Origin: an uncultured bacterium
GTDB taxonomy: Bacteria > Bacillota > Clostridia > Lachnospirales > Lachnospiraceae
Assembly (NCBI GenBank): GCA_945871045.1
Contig: CAMBUC010000001.1
Location: 1 to 39,766, forward strand
Reading direction: 5' to 3'
DNA length: 39,766 nucleotides
Each line of letters opens with the position of its first letter. The first letter of the stretch is position 1. Of this stretch, positions 5,728-37,820 are shown in pieces. The translations under genes were made by a program, and so were the position numbers. A model generated the notes under the pieces. That model searched no databases. It had not been told where the DNA came from and worked only from the letters and a program-made list of their open reading frames with translations.

Positions 5728-6576
5728 ATGAACGAATTGAAAATTTTTGAGAACGAAGAGTTTGGACAGATCAGAGCGATTGAAAAGGATGGAGAACCGT
5801 GGTTTGTTGGGAAAGATGTAGCAGAAGCACTTGGTTATGGCGATGGAAATGTAAAAAGTAAAGCCTTAACAAATGCAGTCAACGACCATGTTGATGATGA
5901 AGATAAAACGCTACTTTCTTATAACGAATTTAAGGGGTACCAAAATGGTGACCTTAAAAATATAAGTCATTATGGCGCATACGTTATAAACGAATCCGGT
6001 TTATACAGCCTGATCTTATCCAGTAAGCTGCCAACTGCGAAAAAGTTCAAACGCTGGGTAACATCCGAAGTACTTCCGTCTATCCGTAAGCATGGCATGT
6101 ATGCTATGCCGGACACCGTTGAAAAGATGATTGCGGATCCGGACACCGCTATAAGGCTGTTGACCACTCTGAAGGAAGAACAAAACAAGCGTAAAGTCTT
6201 GGAAGATGAGAACGCACAGCAGAAACAGCTGATCGCAGAGTTTAACCCGAAAGCCAGCTATTACGATGTTGTTCTTCAAACTGCGGATGTTTTGAGTTCT
6301 ACCCAGATCGCGAAGGACTACGGGAAGAGTGCAAAATGGCTCAATAAGCTGCTGCATGAGTTAGGCGTACAATTCAAGCAGGGCAAAACATGGCTTCTGT
6401 ATCAAAAATATGCGGAGCAGGGCTATACGAAGTCTAAGACGGATGTTTACAGTGGAAAAGATGGTAAACAGCACAGCCGCATACATACTTACTGGACGCA
6501 GAAAGGCAGATTGTTCATCTATGATCTGTTGAAATCACAGGGCATTTTACCTTTGGTAGAAGCGAAGGGGGCTTAG
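5728..6576 (+). CDS. Antirepressor (Bro-N + ANT/KilAC)
   Basis: MNELKIFENEEFG..PWFVGKDVA..INESGLYSL..WVTSEVLPSIRK; WTQKGRLFIY; SD GGAGGTG. Confidence 0.93.
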   Translation: MNELKIFENEEFGQIRAIEKDGEPWFVGKDVAEALGYGDGNVKSKALTNAVNDHVDDEDKTLLSYNEFKGYQNGDLKNISHYGAYVINESGLYSLILSSKLPTAKKFKRWVTSEVLPSIRKHGMYAMPDTVEKMIADPDTAIRLLTTLKEEQNKRKVLEDENAQQKQLIAEFNPKASYYDVVLQTADVLSSTQIAKDYGKSAKWLNKLLHELGVQFKQGKTWLLYQKYAEQGYTKSKTDVYSGKDGKQHSRIHTYWTQKGRLFIYDLLKSQGILPLVEAKGA

Positions 6577-6606
6577 GGAAGACCTTGCATGAAGGGAAGT
6601 GAAAAC

Positions 6607-6813
6607 ATGACAAAGACGGATATCAAACGTCAGCTGGAGTCTGCAACGGGCAAATCATTTCTTTGCATCTCAGAGATCGCCCGCTGTCTCGGAATGGGTC
6701 GGGATCACACACGGTCGTTATTGGCAGGTTTGAACTACCTGCCATCCGGGCGCGAGAAAAGGTACTTAATATCCGATGTCGCAGAACGAATTGCAGAAAA
6801 AAGACGCTGTTAG
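6607..6813 (+). CDS. Small HTH DNA-binding protein (excisionase-like)
   Basis: ISEIARCLGMGRDHTR..KRYLISDVAE; position after antirepressor. Confidence 0.6.
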   Translation: MTKTDIKRQLESATGKSFLCISEIARCLGMGRDHTRSLLAGLNYLPSGREKRYLISDVAERIAEKRRC

Positions 6814-6875
6814 TCATCTTTGGGATAATATTGGATCTCAAAATATGCATAGAGCAGGAAAGGAGGCAAAAGTAA

Positions 6876-7040
6876 GTGTTAGATGTAGAAAAAATCAAGG
6901 AGAAGTATGTAATTTTGCTTACGGAAGCCGGCTGTAGAGAGTTAAAGACACAAGATGATGTTCTTGTTGATTTAGTATGTACCGCTGCGGCTTTAGGATT
7001 TGGAAAAGGCTTTGCAGTTGGAAGGGGAGTAAAAGAATGA
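6876..7040 (+). CDS. Hypothetical 54-aa protein (not in ORF track)
   Basis: SD AGGAGG, GTG start, ATGA overlap with next gene. Confidence 0.6.
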   Translation: MLDVEKIKEKYVILLTEAGCRELKTQDDVLVDLVCTAAALGFGKGFAVGRGVKE

Positions 7041-7246
7041 AAAAGATCATCATAGGTTTTGCACTGGCAGCCGGATACATTTTTCTGTGTTACTGGCAGA
7101 GAGGTTATTTGAATCTTATGAGTGATCTGATTGTGATCGCTATGGCGGTGGTCGCGTATGTTGTTTTTTCGGACACAGAAGAGGGATTCGGTGATGTACA
7201 GGAAGCAGCGGGGATGTATGAAAGATGGCATGACGATGCCGCATGA
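7037..7246 (+). CDS. Small two-helix membrane protein
   Basis: MKKIIIGFALAAGYIFL..LIVIAMAVVAYVVF. Confidence 0.65.
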   Translation: MKKIIIGFALAAGYIFLCYWQRGYLNLMSDLIVIAMAVVAYVVFSDTEEGFGDVQEAAGMYERWHDDAA

Positions 7247-7322
7247 GCGAAAAAAGTACCTGTCAGTAAGTAAGGCACACGCCTGTAAACAGAACATGTG
7301 CCTTACGAAATGAACCATAAAC

Positions 7323-7351
7323 ATCATAGCACAAAACAAAGAGTGCAGCAA
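7323..7351 (-). promoter_or_regulatory. Antisense promoter in early operon
   Basis: Minus strand TTGCTG-N17-TATGAT with TGTG extension, upstream of hairpin 7270-7306. Confidence 0.6.
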
Positions 7352-7371
7352 TCCGGAAAGGAGAATAACGA

Positions 7372-7518
7372 GTGGACAAGGAAGTGACAATTTCTGCTCA
7401 CCGGTTTGAATGCTTGGTACGGCGGGAGTTTCTGTATGAATACTTTCGGAGTTTGCTTCTGGAAGGGGAGGATACTGCATCGAGATTAGTTGAAATTGCG
7501 GATGAAATAGAATCTTAA
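7372..7518 (+). CDS. Hypothetical 48-aa protein (not in ORF track)
   Basis: SD AAGGAG, GTG start, VDKEVTISAHRFE.. Confidence 0.55.
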   Translation: MDKEVTISAHRFECLVRREFLYEYFRSLLLEGEDTASRLVEIADEIES

Positions 7519-7530
7519 GAGGAGGAATCT

Positions 7531-7953
7531 ATGGTTATTGAAGTGACGTTAAACAAGCATGATTTTGAAGAAAACAAAGCGGAAAAATGGAAGGCGCTTT
7601 CTGTACTGATGGGGGCAGAAACGGCAGAGACTCACCTTCGGATCAGCAATCCGGCAGAGAGTGCAGCAGTCCCGGGAACTTTGGAGAAAACTACGCCGGA
7701 TGTATCTTCGGTATCCGCACCAGAAGCATCATCGGCTCCGGTGCAGCCGGCGGGAACTGCAGTTCCGACAACAACGCCGACCTATACGCTGGCACAGCTG
7801 CAGGGGGTGATCGGGCCGCTGTTGTCTGCGGGCAAAGGCCCGGAGCTTCAGAGCTTGCTTGCAAAGTATGGGGTAGCTCAGATGACAGATCTCAGAGCGG
7901 ATCAGATGGATTTGTTTGCTGCGGATCTGAGGGCGATGGGGGCGCAGATATAG
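7531..7953 (+). CDS. Phage protein preceding DUF2800 (P/A-rich linker, C-terminal helical domain)
   Basis: SD GAGGAGG; ..YTLAQLQ..LLAKYGVAQMTDL. Confidence 0.75.
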   Translation: MVIEVTLNKHDFEENKAEKWKALSVLMGAETAETHLRISNPAESAAVPGTLEKTTPDVSSVSAPEASSAPVQPAGTAVPTTTPTYTLAQLQGVIGPLLSAGKGPELQSLLAKYGVAQMTDLRADQMDLFAADLRAMGAQI

Positions 7954-24249: not shown

Positions 24250-25434
24250 ATGCCAGATATGATTTCCCGCCAGCAGGCGGAAGCTCTGATTCAGGAGCAG
24301 CTGATCAATACGATTCAGCAGGACACCCCAAAAAACTCGATCTTCATGCAGCTGGCACGTCGATTGCCAAATATGACCAGTAAAACGACGCGGATGCCGG
24401 TACTCGATATGCTGCCGATGGCCTACTGGGTTAATGGAGATAATGGCTTCAAACAGACCAGCCAGCAGGCGTGGGACAACGTGTATCTCACTGCTGAGGA
24501 ATTGGCGGTGATCGTACCGATTCCGGAAGCGGTGGTTGACGATGCATCCTTTGACATCATGGGCGAGGTAAGACCACGTGTCACGGAAGCGATCGGTATC
24601 CGTGTCGATCAGGCGGCTATTTTCGGTGTTAGTCGCCCGGCAAGCTGGCGTGCGGATATCATTACTTCCGCGCGGCAGGCAGGGAACAACGTAGCGCCGG
24701 GCAGCGACTTATATAACGCTCTTCTCGGAGAAAACGGTGTAATCTCCAAAGTAGAACAGGGCGGCCGTATGGTCAACGGCGCGGTTGCTGCCATGGCTAT
24801 GCGGGGAAAACTGAGAGGAATTAAAACGACGGAAGGCATGCCGATCTTTAAGTCGGATATGCAGGGCCCGACACAGTACGCACTGGATGGTGCACCGATG
24901 TACTTCCCAATGAATGGCGCCTTTGACACTTCCGTCGCGCAGCTGATCGTCGGCGACTGGTCTCAGGCGGTGTATTCCGTCCGTCAGGATATCACGGTCA
25001 AGATTTTGGATCAGGGTGTGATTCAGGATCCGAGTACGAAAGAAATTGTATATAACCTTGCACAGCAGGATATGATCGCACTTCGTGTAGTGTTCCGTAT
25101 GGGCTGGGCTCTGCCGAATCCGGCCACCAGACTGGATGAAGATCGTCTGTACGTGCCGTTTGCTTATTTGGAGCCGGCTACGGCGGTAACAACGCAGAAG
25201 GTTACTTTTACCGTGAAGAATAACGAGGAAGAACCGGAAGCGGTAGAAGGAGCGGTCATCGATTTAGACGGGGCGCGTCTGAAGACCGGAACAGACGGAA
25301 CTGCGATTTTTAACCTGCGAAAGGGAACCTACAACGCGAAAATTTCGAAGAAAGGTTACGGTACTGTTATCGAAACCGTTAATGTCGATGCGGCAGCCGT
25401 GAGCAAAGATATCACTCTGATCCCGAAAGAATAG
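24250..25434 (+). CDS. Major capsid protein with C-terminal beta-sandwich extension
   Basis: AYWVNG..EELAVIVPIPE..IVGDWS..NLAQQDMIALR; last ~80 aa VTFTV..GAVI..TGTDG.A..GTY...SKKGY. Confidence 0.92.
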   Translation: MPDMISRQQAEALIQEQLINTIQQDTPKNSIFMQLARRLPNMTSKTTRMPVLDMLPMAYWVNGDNGFKQTSQQAWDNVYLTAEELAVIVPIPEAVVDDASFDIMGEVRPRVTEAIGIRVDQAAIFGVSRPASWRADIITSARQAGNNVAPGSDLYNALLGENGVISKVEQGGRMVNGAVAAMAMRGKLRGIKTTEGMPIFKSDMQGPTQYALDGAPMYFPMNGAFDTSVAQLIVGDWSQAVYSVRQDITVKILDQGVIQDPSTKEIVYNLAQQDMIALRVVFRMGWALPNPATRLDEDRLYVPFAYLEPATAVTTQKVTFTVKNNEEEPEAVEGAVIDLDGARLKTGTDGTAIFNLRKGTYNAKISKKGYGTVIETVNVDAAAVSKDITLIPKE

Positions 25435-32610: not shown

Positions 32611-34301
32611 GTAGGCATACCAGCGTAGCCGTAGAATACAGTCTATTTGATCGGACGGCATCTCAAGACAACGCGTTTTCCATCGATGAGATTCAGCCCT
32701 TTTCTGATACCGCGGAACTGAACGATGATGAACAGAGAATCGAAAAGTGGGCGACGTTGGAAAATACAGGCTTTCTGATGGATGGGACATTCGAGCTGCC
32801 CCCGGATGACCTGGCGGCGGAGTTTACGGGGGTGTGGTCAAAGGAACTCAGTGGGGAAAACGGAATGCTTTCCTCGCCGCCGGTTTTGTCGATTACCTTC
32901 TCGGAAGCGCATACCTCGGCAGGACTGACGCTGACCTTTTCCGAAGCTACTGAGGACTGGTGCAGCAGCCTGAATATCATCTGGTACGATCAGGCGGGCG
33001 CGCAGATCGCAAACCGTGATTTTTCACCGAATGCAGCTGTGTATTTTTGCGATTGCCAGGTGGAGGATTTTTACGGAATAAAAATCACTTTTTATCGTAC
33101 CAATCAACCGTACCATTTTCTGAAACTGACCGGAATCCGGTACGGAATTCTGATGCAGTTGGACGCACCGAGACTGATAACCTGCTCGGTTCTGGAGGAA
33201 GTGGATCCGATCAGTTCGGAACTCAGCATCAATACGATGACATTCTCTTTTCACAGTGAGAAAGGGGAATTTGATCTGCTGGATCTTACCGGAGCCTATG
33301 TCTTATTTCAGCAGCGGCAGGAAATAAAAGTGCTGGGAGAAATGGACGGCATAAAAATGAATATGGGGACCTTCTATCTGGATGAGCCGAAATCAGATAC
33401 CGATAGTACTGTGACGATGCAGTGCATCGACCTCGTAGGAGTTATGGACGATACGGAATATCTGGGCGGTTACTGGCCGGAGGGCATTGCCGCCGAAGAT
33501 CTGATTGTAAAAATCATGACTTCTGCAGGGGTGGAACCGGATCTGTTTGAGATCAAAAACGATCTAAGCGGCCGGAAAATTTACGGTTATCTGCCGATCT
33601 GTACGCATCGAGAGGCACTGCAGCAGGTGGCTTTTGCTTTGTGCGCTGTGGTGGACTGTTCCAGATCCGGAGTTCTTACTATCCGATCAGCCAAGCAGGA
33701 AGTGAAAGAAATCCCGCTAAATCGAAAAGTCATTGGCCACACGCAGGAACAGGCGGCTCTGATCACCGGAGTGGAGGTATTTGTAAGTAATTACGCTTTA
33801 GGGGACAGCAGCACAAAACTCTTTGAAGAAGAAAGACCGGCCGGTACGTTTTTTGCGAAGTTTTCCTCCCCTGCAGCAAACGTGACCTGCTCCGGAGGTG
33901 TGATTACAGAAAATGACGTAAATTATGCCAAAATCGACGTAAAAACAGCCGGGATGGTAACCATTACAGGTATCACTTACGAGGAAACAAAGAGCCTGTC
34001 CGGAAGTGTATATGCTGAGAATTTGCCGGCAAATGCGCTGCCAAATGTTCTGCAGATCGAAGACTGTACGTTACATGTCGACGCCCAGGCGCTGGCACAG
34101 CATATTTACGATTACTACCAGCGGCGGATCACCGACACCGGCAGCTTTCTTTTATCAGAAGAAACCGTCGGTGATTTGGTAGAACTGGAAAACTCCAGCG
34201 GAAAGGTACTGGAAGGCGCTGTGGAACAGATGGATATCGATCTGACCGGTGGATTCATAGCGAAGGCGGTGATACGGGGAAATGGAAAATCTGATTTATG
34301 A
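32607..34301 (+). CDS. Tail hub/baseplate protein
   Basis: 564 aa after Dit; MGTFYL, GYLPICTHREALQQVAFA. Confidence 0.7.
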   Translation: MSRHTSVAVEYSLFDRTASQDNAFSIDEIQPFSDTAELNDDEQRIEKWATLENTGFLMDGTFELPPDDLAAEFTGVWSKELSGENGMLSSPPVLSITFSEAHTSAGLTLTFSEATEDWCSSLNIIWYDQAGAQIANRDFSPNAAVYFCDCQVEDFYGIKITFYRTNQPYHFLKLTGIRYGILMQLDAPRLITCSVLEEVDPISSELSINTMTFSFHSEKGEFDLLDLTGAYVLFQQRQEIKVLGEMDGIKMNMGTFYLDEPKSDTDSTVTMQCIDLVGVMDDTEYLGGYWPEGIAAEDLIVKIMTSAGVEPDLFEIKNDLSGRKIYGYLPICTHREALQQVAFALCAVVDCSRSGVLTIRSAKQEVKEIPLNRKVIGHTQEQAALITGVEVFVSNYALGDSSTKLFEEERPAGTFFAKFSSPAANVTCSGGVITENDVNYAKIDVKTAGMVTITGITYEETKSLSGSVYAENLPANALPNVLQIEDCTLHVDAQALAQHIYDYYQRRITDTGSFLLSEETVGDLVELENSSGKVLEGAVEQMDIDLTGGFIAKAVIRGNGKSDL

Positions 34302-34686
34302 TCGAACACAAGCAGATGTAGATGCCGGGTTGGATAAGGCGAGAGCCAGTGTGGATTTTTTGAATCGTATTGAAAGCTGGTGCGCCTATCTGGCGGAGAG
34401 GTTAAGAGAGTACGGATATGCAATTGTAACGAATACACGAAAAAAAACGTGGATGATGTCAGACTTTCCTTATCGTTCTGAAATCGACCGGATCCGGCAT
34501 AATGTCGATAATTTACAGCAGGGCTTTTACAGTCTTCCGGATTGGCGGGAGATCGTGTATAACAATACCATAGATTTTAACCAGGCGAACGCACTTGAAT
34601 GGGATCTACAGACCATTGACATCTGGCTGCAGCGAATGATGGCAGCCTTTTTTTATTGCGGTGAATTATACAGTGGGGAGGTGTAG
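34282..34686 (+). CDS. Tail tip protein
   Basis: LIYDRTQADVD..LNRIE..QANALE..FYCGELYSGEV. Confidence 0.7.
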   Translation: MENLIYDRTQADVDAGLDKARASVDFLNRIESWCAYLAERLREYGYAIVTNTRKKTWMMSDFPYRSEIDRIRHNVDNLQQGFYSLPDWREIVYNNTIDFNQANALEWDLQTIDIWLQRMMAAFFYCGELYSGEV

Positions 34687-34689
34687 TAA

Positions 34690-34860
34690 ATGGCGGATAC
34701 CATCACGATCACGCTGCCAGACATTACCTTGGTCAGCCTTACTCCAAATCCCGTCAATACGAACGCAGCACTTAAAATATCCGTAAAAGCAACTGAAATC
34801 AGTAAAATACTTTATCCGGAGTGGTTTTACTCCGGAGATATTTACACAGGGGAGGAATAA
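34690..34860 (+). CDS. 56-aa tail protein with N-half Ig segment (not in ORF track)
   Basis: SD GGAGGTG; LPDITLVSLTPNPVNTNAALKISVKATE..FYSGDIYTGEE. Confidence 0.75.
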   Translation: MADTITITLPDITLVSLTPNPVNTNAALKISVKATEISKILYPEWFYSGDIYTGEE

Positions 34861-35754
34861 ATGGCAATTAAAGGAGTGAAAGCCGTAATCAACGGTCAGA
34901 CTTATAATCTTACTCTGAACTCTGGAACCGGAAAGTACGAAGCGACTGTAACAGCGCCCGCAGAGTCTTCTTATAATCAACCCGGACATTACTATAATGT
35001 TCAGGTGACAGCAGAAGATGACGCGGGCAATACGACCACGAAAGACGCCTCGGACGGTACGCTCGGCGCATCGTTACAGCTCCAGGTAAAGGAAAAAGTT
35101 GCACCGATCATCACAATCACCGCCCCGACTGAAGGTGCGACAATCACAAACAATAAGCCTACTATCGCTTGGGCGGTTACGGATGAAGACTCCGGTGTGG
35201 ATCCAGACACGATTTCGATTAAGATCGACAGTGGGTCCGTTATTACGTCTGGCATATCCAAAACAGCATCGGGTAAGGGCTTTACCTGTAGCTATACACC
35301 AACGACGGCGTTATCGGATGGATCTCATACAATTACAGTCAATGCATCAGATTACGACGGAAATGCAGCAACAGCGAAAACAACTACTTTCAAAGTGGAT
35401 ACTGTTCCACCTACGTTATCTGTCATTTCGCCGGAAGAAGGTCTTGTAACGAATCAGGCTACTATCACGGTTTCTGGTACGACAAATGATGCGACGTCAT
35501 CACCGGTGACATTGACTATCAATTCCGATCCTGTCGAAGTTGGAGCAGACGGTGCTTTCTCCACCACCATCACACTTAACAGCGGAGAGAACACAATTAC
35601 AATTATTGCTACTGATTCTGCAGGCAAGAGCACGACGGTAACGAGACATGTGACGCTTGATACTGGTGCGCCGGTCTTCCAGTCCGTAACGATAACACCA
35701 AATCCGGTAGATGCTGGAAAGACTTTTGTCATCAGTGTTGAGGTAACCGACTGA
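34861..35754 (+). CDS. Ig-like repeat tail protein
   Basis: Thr-rich; AEDDAGN, ASDYDGN, ATDSAGK, VDTVPP, LDTGAP motifs. Confidence 0.88.
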   Translation: MAIKGVKAVINGQTYNLTLNSGTGKYEATVTAPAESSYNQPGHYYNVQVTAEDDAGNTTTKDASDGTLGASLQLQVKEKVAPIITITAPTEGATITNNKPTIAWAVTDEDSGVDPDTISIKIDSGSVITSGISKTASGKGFTCSYTPTTALSDGSHTITVNASDYDGNAATAKTTTFKVDTVPPTLSVISPEEGLVTNQATITVSGTTNDATSSPVTLTINSDPVEVGADGAFSTTITLNSGENTITIIATDSAGKSTTVTRHVTLDTGAPVFQSVTITPNPVDAGKTFVISVEVTD

Positions 35755-36071
35755 TGGTCAAGCGTGTGTTTGGTGCGGTAGATAATCAGGATGTGGTATT
35801 TACTCCGAATATCGATACGGGGCTGTGGGAAACTACAGTCCCCGCAGATGTGGACGGAGAATACGTCACAGAACTGTATGCGGAAGATGAGGCCGGCAAT
35901 ATCAGCTATATGGCTACCGTCCTGTTTGCTGTCGATACGTCAAATATGTGTGTGCGTGTTAAGGTGATTCGCTATGCGACGGAAAGCAGTTTGATAGATT
36001 ATGATGCGGATTGTAGTCTTACGGATATCCGCGCGGAGATCATCCGCTGTGAACTGTGCGGGAGATGGTAG
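35754..36071 (+). CDS. Partial Ig-like (PF13754-like) protein
   Basis: GLWETTVP..DGEY..ELYAEDEAGNISY. Confidence 0.75.
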   Translation: MVKRVFGAVDNQDVVFTPNIDTGLWETTVPADVDGEYVTELYAEDEAGNISYMATVLFAVDTSNMCVRVKVIRYATESSLIDYDADCSLTDIRAEIIRCELCGRW

Positions 36072-36080
36072 GTGATAATC

Positions 36081-36347
36081 ATGAATACAGTGAACATGCT
36101 TATAGGTGAGCGTAGACGTTTGACAGTACGTATTACTGCAGGTGGGCAGGATTTTACGATTCGGAATCCAAAATATGAGTTGATGCGTAGCGGAGAGGTA
36201 ATCGCCTCAGGCACACCGACTGTCAGCGGAAATGATTTGATCTGTATGCTTGAGCCGCCGGTCGCAGGAGGGTATACAATGGAGTTTACATTCGAGATCG
36301 CGGGAGAGATTGTAAAAAAACGAGTAACGATCTTGGTAGAAAAGTGA
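36081..36347 (+). CDS. Small beta-rich tail protein
   Basis: GERRRL..GGYTMEFTFEIAGEIVK. Confidence 0.65.
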   Translation: MNTVNMLIGERRRLTVRITAGGQDFTIRNPKYELMRSGEVIASGTPTVSGNDLICMLEPPVAGGYTMEFTFEIAGEIVKKRVTILVEK

Positions 36348-36356
36348 GGCTTGAAA

Positions 36357-37202
36357 ATGAAAGATAGAGTACCAAAATATCCGGGGCGTGTTTACGTTAC
36401 CCCAGAAAATGGGGGCGCGCCGTATTATGCGACTGTTGAGAGAGCGGATGAGCCTGTTGAGGTTGGCACACCTTTAAATAAGGCAACTTTGCTAAGCGAT
36501 GATGTCGCTAACTTGATTAGTTTATCGGGAGATCAGGCGACCGTAAGCGAAGCTTTAAAAGCTGTATTTAATCTCGCAAATCCATATGCAAGCACTTCGC
36601 GATACGGCAGAACGAAACTTACATCTGCTCTCTCTAACAGCGAATCGTTAGCTGTTACACCGAAAGCAGTCAACGCAATTAACGATAAGATAGAGAAAAT
36701 ACCGTCACGGGAACTTCTATTTTCAGAATCTTATACATATGAAGACAATATTATCAGGATAGAGTTAGATTTATCTTCTATAGACTTATCCAAATACATG
36801 TCTATAAGTATACATATTGAATCTTCATCAACACCCTCCAGTTTGTCTTCTTATGTTTCGTTTTCGGGGATATCTAATAGTAGTGATGGAGTCGCCTTAG
36901 TACTGGATACAGACAGTGACCTCACTATGGCAAGATACGAGTACAACGATGATATTCCCATATGTAACGACGACTGGACAAGCGCCTCCCTGTCAGGAGC
37001 TCGTATTATGGATATTAATATTCCTATACGTAGTAGCGATCCGACCTCAATGCCGACCGGCTTAATATCTCGAATAGTAATGTCCGGATACTCCAATATC
37101 GTAATTGGAAATATAAATGATAGTTGGGATGGTCAGAAAATAACGGTGTACACAGATAGGCTCGGGAAAGGAAGTACATATGTATATGGAGAGAAAATAT
37201 GA
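36357..37202 (+). CDS. Tail fibre / receptor-binding protein
   Basis: MKDRVPKYPGRV..GTPLNKATLL; fibre repeat AST..YG.TKL..SESLAVTPKAV; AT-richer C-terminal half. Confidence 0.72.
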   Translation: MKDRVPKYPGRVYVTPENGGAPYYATVERADEPVEVGTPLNKATLLSDDVANLISLSGDQATVSEALKAVFNLANPYASTSRYGRTKLTSALSNSESLAVTPKAVNAINDKIEKIPSRELLFSESYTYEDNIIRIELDLSSIDLSKYMSISIHIESSSTPSSLSSYVSFSGISNSSDGVALVLDTDSDLTMARYEYNDDIPICNDDWTSASLSGARIMDINIPIRSSDPTSMPTGLISRIVMSGYSNIVIGNINDSWDGQKITVYTDRLGKGSTYVYGEKI

Positions 37203-37360
37203 GTGAGAAAACAAACAAATTAATATTAAGCGCAGAAGGTTCGAGAATTGAAGAAACGGATGTTCCGAAACCGGGTAAAATTACAGAAACTCCCAGTAAG
37301 TTTGTGACGTGGGACGCACTCGCAGATGCCTATAGAGAGGGGGTCGAATCCATTGGATAA
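37199..37360 (+). CDS. 53-aa hypothetical protein (fibre-associated; not in ORF track)
   Basis: ATGA overlap; ..VTWDALADAYREGVESIG. Confidence 0.65.
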   Translation: MSEKTNKLILSAEGSRIEETDVPKPGKITETPSKFVTWDALADAYREGVESIG

Positions 37361-37820
37361 TAAATCCATCGTTTTAAATGCCATGCGCTCTCAGGGCGCC
37401 GCAGATGCCGCCGCACTGGCGGCGAAGTCAGTAGATGGCGATGCAGATGGTACGACTCTGATCGCCGCCGAACATCAGATCCCGACGTGGCGGCAGCGGG
37501 ACTTTACGGATGTACCGATTGGCACTCCGTACCGGTACAATGGTCAGGTATACAAGTTATGGCAGGCACATGATTCCACGAATCAGCCGGACTGGAATCC
37601 GGATAAAGCAGTCAGTCTTTGGGATATCTGTCACACGACAGATCCGAAAACAGCAAAAGAATATGTAACATCTCAAGGCACTCGCGGCATGTATCAGGTC
37701 GACGAGTGCTGTTTCTTTGAGGGGAAAACATATCGATGCACGGCAGCCAACACGGTACATAGCCCGAAGGAACTGCCGGCATCATGGGAAGAAGTAACAG
37801 CAGAAGAGATGGAGGTTTAA
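37353..37820 (+). CDS. Carbohydrate-binding (CBM5/12-like) domain protein
   Basis: YNGQVYKLWQAHDS..W.P..SLW; EGKTYRC..SP..PASW. Confidence 0.72.
   Translation: MDNKSIVLNAMRSQGAADAAALAAKSVDGDADGTTLIAAEHQIPTWRQRDFTDVPIGTPYRYNGQVYKLWQAHDSTNQPDWNPDKAVSLWDICHTTDPKTAKEYVTSQGTRGMYQVDECCFFEGKTYRCTAANTVHSPKELPASWEEVTAEEMEV

Follow-up and report, generated by a model that had tools for sequence, protein, structure and literature searches.

The window analysed here, a stretch of 39,766 nt, is a whole contig of its assembly and appears to carry a near-complete temperate siphophage, from the integrase through to the endolysin. The tape measure gene is followed by genes for a Dit-like 131-aa protein, a 564-aa Tal-like protein (phrog_13879) and the 134-aa protein DRT, then by a cassette of small genes and by a tail fibre gene with a PF03406 repeat; the Dit-like and Tal-like labels were assigned by gene position. 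A sequence-only reading of this DNA had singled out three ORFs of 56, 297 and 105 aa. All three are present where it placed them, with the motifs that it quoted (Table 1). That reading missed a fourth cassette gene, for an 88-aa complete Ig-like protein. In the window the start of the 105-aa gene overlaps the stop codon of the subunit gene (TGATG).

Table 1. Features of the cassette region (window positions)
Feature	Position	Strand	Remarks
DRT, 134-aa tail-tip protein (phrog_18725)	34282..34686	+	C-terminal motif FFYCGELYSGEV; outside the cassette proper; fusion partner in relatives
56-aa donor-only terminator	34690..34860	+	A-B hairpin, residues ~9-35; putative docking peptide at the C-terminus (residues 45-56, WFYSGDIYTGEE)
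297-aa circularly permuted BIg subunit (phrog_11157), predicted polymer shaft	34861..35754	+	ends ...ISVEVTD*
Subunit residues 1-79, acceptor half-domain (strands C-G)	34861..35097	+	includes Asp53
Subunit residues 80-267, two complete SiiE-type Ig domains	35098..35661	+	triads E78/D108/D164 and D180/D210/D252
Subunit residues 268-297, donor A-B hairpin	35662..35751	+	last residue Asp297
105-aa acceptor-only terminator (PF13754 Big_3_4, phrog_32322)	35754..36071	+	C-G half, then a tail of ~9-residue repeats ending in Cys residues
88-aa complete Ig-like protein, candidate virion adaptor	36081..36347	+	fourth cassette gene; ORF caller start 36072
Tail fibre gene	36357..37202	+	PF03406 repeat; low-GC variable C-terminal part; inferred docking-peptide partner

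Elsewhere in the window, the major capsid protein (24250-25434) carries an in-frame C-terminal carboxypeptidase-regulatory-like (Ig-like) domain of ~80 aa. The C-terminal part of the fibre gene (36711-37202) has a GC content of 0.38, against 0.43-0.52 around it, which is typical of a swapped receptor-binding region. Positions 37326-37820 (likely start near 37355), 3′ of the fibre gene and of a 53-aa chaperone-like gene, encode a small protein that matches CBM_5_12.

The 297-aa subunit combines an incomplete β-sandwich with a free donor element. Its split ends had been recognized in the sequence-only reading, which placed one internal domain between them; there are two complete ones, a Big_13-like domain (residues 80-180) and a Glucodextran_B-like domain (181-267). 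The subunit belongs to the SiiE-type BIg family both by sequence (E 1.8e-5) and by fold, and no close homologue stood out in BFVD. Homologues make up 6367 of the 7992 scored candidates of 163-520 aa. Among 150 listed, all 23 representatives of 285-320 aa have the C-G half at the start and the A-B half at the end. The stop codon follows the Asp297 column in 32 of 39 aligned cluster representatives and comes one residue later in 7 of 39. In profile comparisons, the 56-aa family matched the A-B half of the subunit (98.6%) and the 105-aa family its C-G half (97.2%). The 105-aa protein also matches PF13754 Big_3_4 (91.5 bits, gathering cut-off 27.3) and SiiE (E 4e-8). The C-G half in turn resembles internal domain 3 (56.5%, E 1e-4). 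Matches of the A-B half to the internal domains are weak (domain 2, 1.2%, E 0.044; domain 3, 0.3%), so that its assignment relies on the models and natural fusions described below. The split half-domains, like the four-gene cassette and the fusions, are seen at the level of sequence. Within clusters, pN/pS is 0.14 for the subunit, 0.21 for the 105-aa protein, 0.14 for the 88-aa protein and 0.18 for the 56-aa protein, values that indicate purifying selection on all four genes.

The tail of the 105-aa protein (35940-36068) consists of ~9-residue repeats, variable in number and ending in Cys in many relatives, and is a possible short rope or metal site. The subunit gene of L057 (10001-10911) and the 88-aa gene of L111 (7238-7515) are each in two pieces, possibly through assembly errors.

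The sequence-only reading had proposed gene-order conservation as a check. We kept 226 loci after dropping those nearly identical to the window (L001, L063, L069, L071 and L151); the 225 with a subunit form 41 clusters at 90% identity. In the 36 clusters with more than 1.5 kb on both sides, HMMs detected the acceptor-only gene in 33, in each case immediately 3′ of the subunit gene, the donor-only gene in 33, the 88-aa gene in 29 and DRT in 9, although the loci are the closest matches and the clusters are related, so that both counts and p values suggest more independence than there is. The subunit is thus encoded together with dedicated end subunits, one donor-only and one acceptor-only. The three acceptor-only misses are fusions of the C-G half to DRT or phage Chenonceau; where the donor-only gene was missed, in three clusters, inspection by eye revealed a small, divergent gene. 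Of the seven clusters in which the 88-aa gene was missed, six carry a DRT fusion and showed no such gene, and the seventh, vir215, has it in weak form; L236 holds an additional DRT fusion without this gene. In two clusters the 88-aa protein is fused to the acceptor-only protein. Where detected by HMM, the donor-only gene lies 3′ of the subunit gene in 31 and 5′ of it in 5 of the 36 clusters.

Ig domains are appended to phage capsid and tail proteins by frameshift. Joining of the half-domains during translation, by frameshift or read-through, would fit the TGATG overlap between the subunit and 105-aa genes and the weak ribosome-binding site of the latter, but the gaps between subunit and acceptor genes range from -11 to +17 nt and use all three frames (3, 16 and 16 of 35), and a slippery heptamer occurs at only 2 of the 35 junctions. 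The cassette therefore has neither a conserved slippery site nor a conserved frame at the junction. Moreover, a donor-only gene located 3′ of the subunit, as in 31 of 36 clusters, cannot be fused in front of it. Frameshift fusion was rejected on these grounds and seems to us barely credible.

The AlphaFold2 model of the subunit monomer has a pLDDT of 95.6 and a pTM of 0.75. Over residues 5-273 it fits the three-domain SiiE rod (230 aligned residues, rmsd 4.5 Å, Z 10.2), and over the whole chain, residues 1-297, four-domain rods (KIT, SYG-2, titin) with an rmsd of 7-10 Å and a Foldseek TM of 0.52. The shape read from these superpositions is a predicted open rod, about three Ig lengths long, with the hairpin projecting where a fourth domain would begin. 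Ring closure within one chain is incompatible with them.

Intermolecular completion of the Ig domain, for which a two-copy model of the 297-aa protein had been suggested as a check, was indeed predicted: the two-copy score was 0.69 against 0.13 for the best of three controls, a score that split Ig halves can also reach through resemblance to solved BIg structures such as SiiE. Of 30 solved pairs, 20 attain the mark used for this score, as does 1 of 23 single chains; these counts apply roughly here, where our own alignment was used. The runs share at least 87% of their contacts, with a partner pLDDT of at least 89. In the best run the only confident interface is one-directional, between residues 268-297 of copy 1 and residues 1-79 of copy 2. 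The donor is thus predicted to be inserted in trans and directionally. Covariation between the ends of the subunit was also found (359 sequences, Neff 82): pair 25-294 has a z of 6.0, rank 9 of all pairs, and pair 71-274 a z of 5.5, whereas the best control pairs with the internal domains reach z 4.2 and 3.4. The register of 25-294 agrees with the modelled contacts 30-289 and 28-290, and covariation supports the same end pairing.

A subunit that closes on itself as a three-domain monomer would be expected to give equally high pLDDT at both ends and the same covariation. The sequence-only reading had named such self-closure as what would speak against it. The model is instead a rod, the confident contact of the two-copy runs lies between chains, and self-closure would leave both terminators partnerless; we regard it as highly improbable. 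Head-to-tail contacts would also be needed if several subunits closed into a ring, for example a collar around the tail or neck, with the terminators as side products or regulators. The model comprises only two copies, and run 3, with 185 contacts of which 109 are confident, contains 76 extra contacts of low confidence. Against such a ring stand the rod-like junctions with their conserved SiiE-like acidic triads, the retention of both terminators in essentially every locus under purifying selection, and covalent homologues that are linear stalks with two different ends. It is a distinctly improbable arrangement.

In SiiE, type I calcium sites are formed by one Asp from the preceding linker and two from the domain (PMC5466336). 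The triads at the two internal junctions of the subunit, E78/D108/D164 and D180/D210/D252, are each invariant (39/39), with two of the three positions mapped onto SiiE by alignment and the third by its position after strand B. At the split junction the acidic residues D53 (35/39), D267 (36/39) and D297 (35/39) are nearly as constant, and 297, 53 and 268-273 fall within the modelled two-copy interface. We infer that the joint binds calcium: a site like SiiE type I, formed across chains by D267 and D297 of one copy and D53 of the next, would stiffen it.

Natural fusions join the same halves covalently. P0251 (633 aa) is a two-subunit tandem in which an A-B half is followed, after three residues, by a subunit-type C-G half (86.9% and 99.5%), and P0267 runs from an A-B half into a 105-aa-type half (65.2% and 95.9%) and on into DRT. 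In P0365, P0327, P0253 and Flavonifractor phage Chenonceau a C-G half is followed by 4, 6, 12 or 2 complete domains, respectively, and then by DRT; to judge from their sequences, these are fixed-length versions of the same stalk. The protein records among these are each a single metagenomic entry, from a database that also returned apparent chimeras. In Chenonceau, a donor-only gene stands in front of the covalent stalk. Chenonceau and Castelnaud are induced prophages whose description contains no electron microscopy in its main text (PMC10197239). The long "fusions" P0124-P0128, P0132 and P0137 were left out of consideration, since they look like chimeras that include pieces of tape-measure, portal or other genes. 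Subunits P0347 and P0251 end in the hairpin plus a docking-type peptide, so that every unit of such a chain might carry a fibre.

Fixed-length stalks, down to the two complete domains of Chenonceau, would also fit a short 1:1:1 assembly of donor-only protein, one subunit and acceptor-only protein, in which completion in trans is kept and no open-ended polymer forms. The cassette, moreover, has no chaperone or protease gene that could restrain runaway assembly, and there is no consistent sign of subunit over-expression. The median ribosome-binding energies (kcal/mol) are -8.9 for the subunit and -3.2 for the 105-aa gene (p 2e-6 between these two), -10.9 for the 88-aa gene and -7.4 for the 56-aa gene, a mixed picture in which binding strength does not single out the subunit. 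The 1:1:1 assembly is however opposed by the predicted subunit-subunit interface, the covariation of the subunit's own ends and the covalent subunit-subunit tandem, and nothing was seen that would bar the hairpin of one subunit from another. We consider it improbable.

The model of the 88-aa protein is a complete Ig sandwich (pLDDT 93.9). Its best fold match is 8jou_D, an 89-residue chain in the GP4 fibre-tail adaptor entry (Z 9.8, rmsd 2.6, 85 aligned), a match tied with generic Ig domains (Z 9.6 and 9.4). From its length, the GP4 chain would be the collar protein gp77. For the 88-aa family the Atlas pointed to BppU_N as a lead (0.89, 27% of members); the N-domains of BppU attach to Dit. Pfam returned no consistent family among the 88-aa members, and profiles of the 88-aa and DRT families retrieved only weak, unrelated matches from PDB sequences. 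For DRT, the Atlas held no named family.

The fusions also bear on the polarity of the chain. The covalent stalks, and 6 of the 36 well-flanked clusters, have the C-G-only end fused to DRT; elsewhere this end is accompanied by the 88-aa protein. In phages without the cassette (L233, L234, L235), DRT lies between the Tal-like and fibre genes, and its fusion to the C-G half therefore puts the acceptor end at the tail tip of the phages concerned. Conversely, in L067, L152 and L065 (vir215) the fusion partner of the donor half is an adhesin-like or fibre-like domain. Donor-only tails are similar where the next large genes have similar N-termini (Mantel rho 0.38, partial 0.40, p 0.0005, 35 of 40 representatives), and their similarity does not follow that of the subunits (rho -0.10); the tail motif classes were set by eye after inspection of the data, and the Mantel test is independent of them. 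The donor-only tail also resembles the C-terminus of the local DRT: against it, the phage's own tail ranked 1-4 of 39 in 11 of 11 cases. The C-terminal peptide of the donor-only protein is probably a fibre-docking peptide. As the simplest reading, the acceptor end is likely the anchor and the donor end likely bears the fibre or adhesin.

The sequence-only reading had labelled the 56-aa protein the initiator and the 105-aa protein the cap. Fusion of the C-G-only end to the tail-tip protein DRT indicates that these labels are likely swapped. In the polarity that they imply, a sub-case of the chain model, the 56-aa protein would dock on a baseplate-bound fibre and the 105-aa and 88-aa proteins would form the distal tip. 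The 56-aa tail is indeed the lineage-specific part, matched to the fibre type of each lineage, and the 105-aa and 88-aa pair is retained across sipho-like, myo-like and head-adjacent settings. This arrangement is at odds with C-G ends fused to a protein sited between Tal-like and fibre genes even where there is no cassette, with the missing 88-aa gene where a DRT fusion exists, and with the adhesin- and fibre-like domains on donor halves. We leave this polarity about a third of the weight, because a lineage-matched part is also what an anchor needs; as a full account of the cassette it is unlikely, yet a serious contender.

The helical domain of DRT is also found N-terminally on a collar-type fibre (L240:1498-2049). 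The class of its C-terminal peptide (YxGExYxGE-like or RLxFxLG-like) matches that of the next fibre gene and often that of the Tal-like C-terminus. The match between DRT and fibre classes extends to cassette-free phages and is a candidate for a general fibre-docking code.

The cassette occurs beside the major capsid gene, among tail chaperones and in myo-like baseplate regions, and one of its carriers is a virus assigned to Methanomassiliicoccales. Cassette loci also lie in cultured commensals, namely Blautia producta DSM 2950, Blautia intestinalis 27-44 and Faecalicatena contorta. Genome sampling placed the subunit in 2 of 301 genomes of the order and the DRT family in 7 of 399 genomes of the class; of the loci obtained, only L236 and L240 gave information, and L237, L239 and L241, read on one strand, yielded nothing. 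Scans with DRT and the Tal-like protein returned one near-identical contig only. In L230 and L220 (~6000-7800) the cassette lies between the major capsid gene and head-tail connector-like genes, and the donor tail differs (T..EL..Y-like); this position suggests a head or neck location in those phages. In L065 (8450-16021; vir215, host given as Methanomassiliicoccales) it lies just 5′ of a tail protein gene and a reverse transcriptase gene, in an arrangement like that of a diversity-generating retroelement.

This varied position, together with fold relatives that are bacterial surface adhesins, might suggest that the chain acts in or on the lysogen and is not part of the virion. The proteins however begin directly with a β-strand and no signal peptide is visible, the loci examined lie among or beside structural and lysis genes, and the fusions are to tail-tip proteins. 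We think a role in the lysogen very improbable.

Chaperone-usher pili, type V pili, archaeal cannulae and TasA likewise consist of an incomplete β-sandwich completed by strands of a neighbour, and in donor-strand pili, as in the cassette, a stalk subunit is encoded together with donor-only and acceptor-only ends. The type V pilins of Bacteroidia (FimA, Mfa1) are described as lipoprotein precursors with a signal peptide, a protease-cleaved anchor strand and a C-terminal donor (PMC13655056), the cannulae as chaperone-free with calcium at the joint (PMC12518558), and TasA as a donor-strand-complemented polymer (PMC9674648). The phage subunit shares its C-terminal donor with type V pilins and may share calcium at the joint with cannulae. 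By inspection, the subunit has neither the signal peptide nor the N-terminal Cys of type V pilins as they are described there. It also differs from chaperone-usher pilins: its neighbours are phage tail genes, and its donor is C-terminal rather than a single N-terminal strand. Unlike all these pili, the cassette belongs to a set of phage structural genes with no visible signal peptide, chaperone, usher, lipoprotein anchor or protease site. Its donor is a ~30-residue A-B hairpin of a SiiE-type BIg domain, and each subunit adds two complete domains. None of the sequence or fold matches listed for the subunit is to those pilins.

With Salmonella SiiE BIg50-52 and related BIg adhesins (Big_13, Glucodextran_B; PDB 2yn3, 2yn5) the subunit shares the domain family, tight linkers, triad positions and rod geometry. 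SiiE, however, forms a single covalent chain with 53 repeats and leaves the cell by type I secretion, whereas in the phage the repeat is cut at the B-C loop and distributed over separate products. Rope-and-bead phage fibres are described for GP4 fibre I, VP1 and A1002 (PMC13730344) and for the whiskers of Bas63 and Sf14 (PMC12609058). As presented there, these are also chain-like virion appendages built by β-strand completion on a small Ig-like collar mount, a likeness that we draw from genes and models. In these fibres a separate rope templates a fixed number of dimers, whereas the subunit of the cassette brings both halves and would have no template limit. The repeat tail of the 105-aa protein, short and variable in length, might be a short rope for the 88-aa protein. 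T4 Hoc and Bas63 Hex-Dec are strings of Ig-like domains with variable repeat number on virions (PMC12609058); as described, these consist of complete domains in one chain and, unlike the cassette, involve no completion between subunits. A literature search of main texts, mostly outside subscription journals, found no description of the subunit family, nor of a phage-borne Ig polymer that serves as its own template, in line with the earlier remark that no such assembly was known in phage tails. We place the cassette in the donor-strand polymer class, as a variant in a phage setting for which we found no precedent, and open filaments are predicted from the models.

We consider it probable that the 297-aa protein, a SiiE-type Ig adhesin in circularly permuted form, builds a pilus-like virion stalk as a head-to-tail chain closed by the 56-aa and 105-aa proteins. 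Intermolecular Ig completion, the head-to-tail chain and two terminators were already part of the sequence-only reading, and find support in the rod and two-copy models, in P0251, in the covariation of the ends and in gene conservation. Each copy would use its C-terminal A-B hairpin to complete the C-G half-domain at the N-terminus of the next copy, and the chain would form chaperone-free, with the donor-only 56-aa protein closing one end and the acceptor-only 105-aa protein the other. The acceptor end would be anchored through DRT fusion in some phages, and through the repeat tail and the 88-aa Ig protein in most. At the free end, the C-terminal peptide of the donor-only protein, a putative copy of the phage's own fibre-docking peptide, would recruit the tail fibre; alternatively, the donor-only protein may itself bear an adhesin-like domain. 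How long the chain grows would depend on the ratio of subunit to terminators, whereas other phages appear to hard-wire 2 to 12 covalent Ig repeats. Such a stalk would likely serve adhesion at a distance, across gut mucus, capsule or cell wall.

More tentatively, and with rather less than even confidence, we propose a portable phage pilus. Starting at the tail tip or neck, the four-gene cassette would build an Ig filament that needs no template, can be tuned in length and is stiffened by calcium, with the phage's own receptor-binding fibre held at the free end by a lineage-swapped mimic of its docking peptide. It would have spread among sipho- and myo-like phages of gut Bacillota and a Methanomassiliicoccales-assigned virus, and its covalent relatives would record an origin by circular permutation of a repeat adhesin.

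Gut phages hold thousands of members of the family, and no annotation of these goes beyond hypothetical or Ig-like. If the proposed assembly is true, it would provide a virion appendage whose length is set neither by a gene nor by a template, a function for the Pfam DUF Big_3_4 and a natural series leading from a covalent repeat adhesin to a non-covalent polymer. A self-assembling, cap-controlled Ig rod would also be a useful scaffold for protein engineering. The swappable tail peptide hints at how fibres dock on the tail tips of Bacillota phages, and the long-open role of phage Ig domains in the gut becomes testable with a few small soluble proteins.
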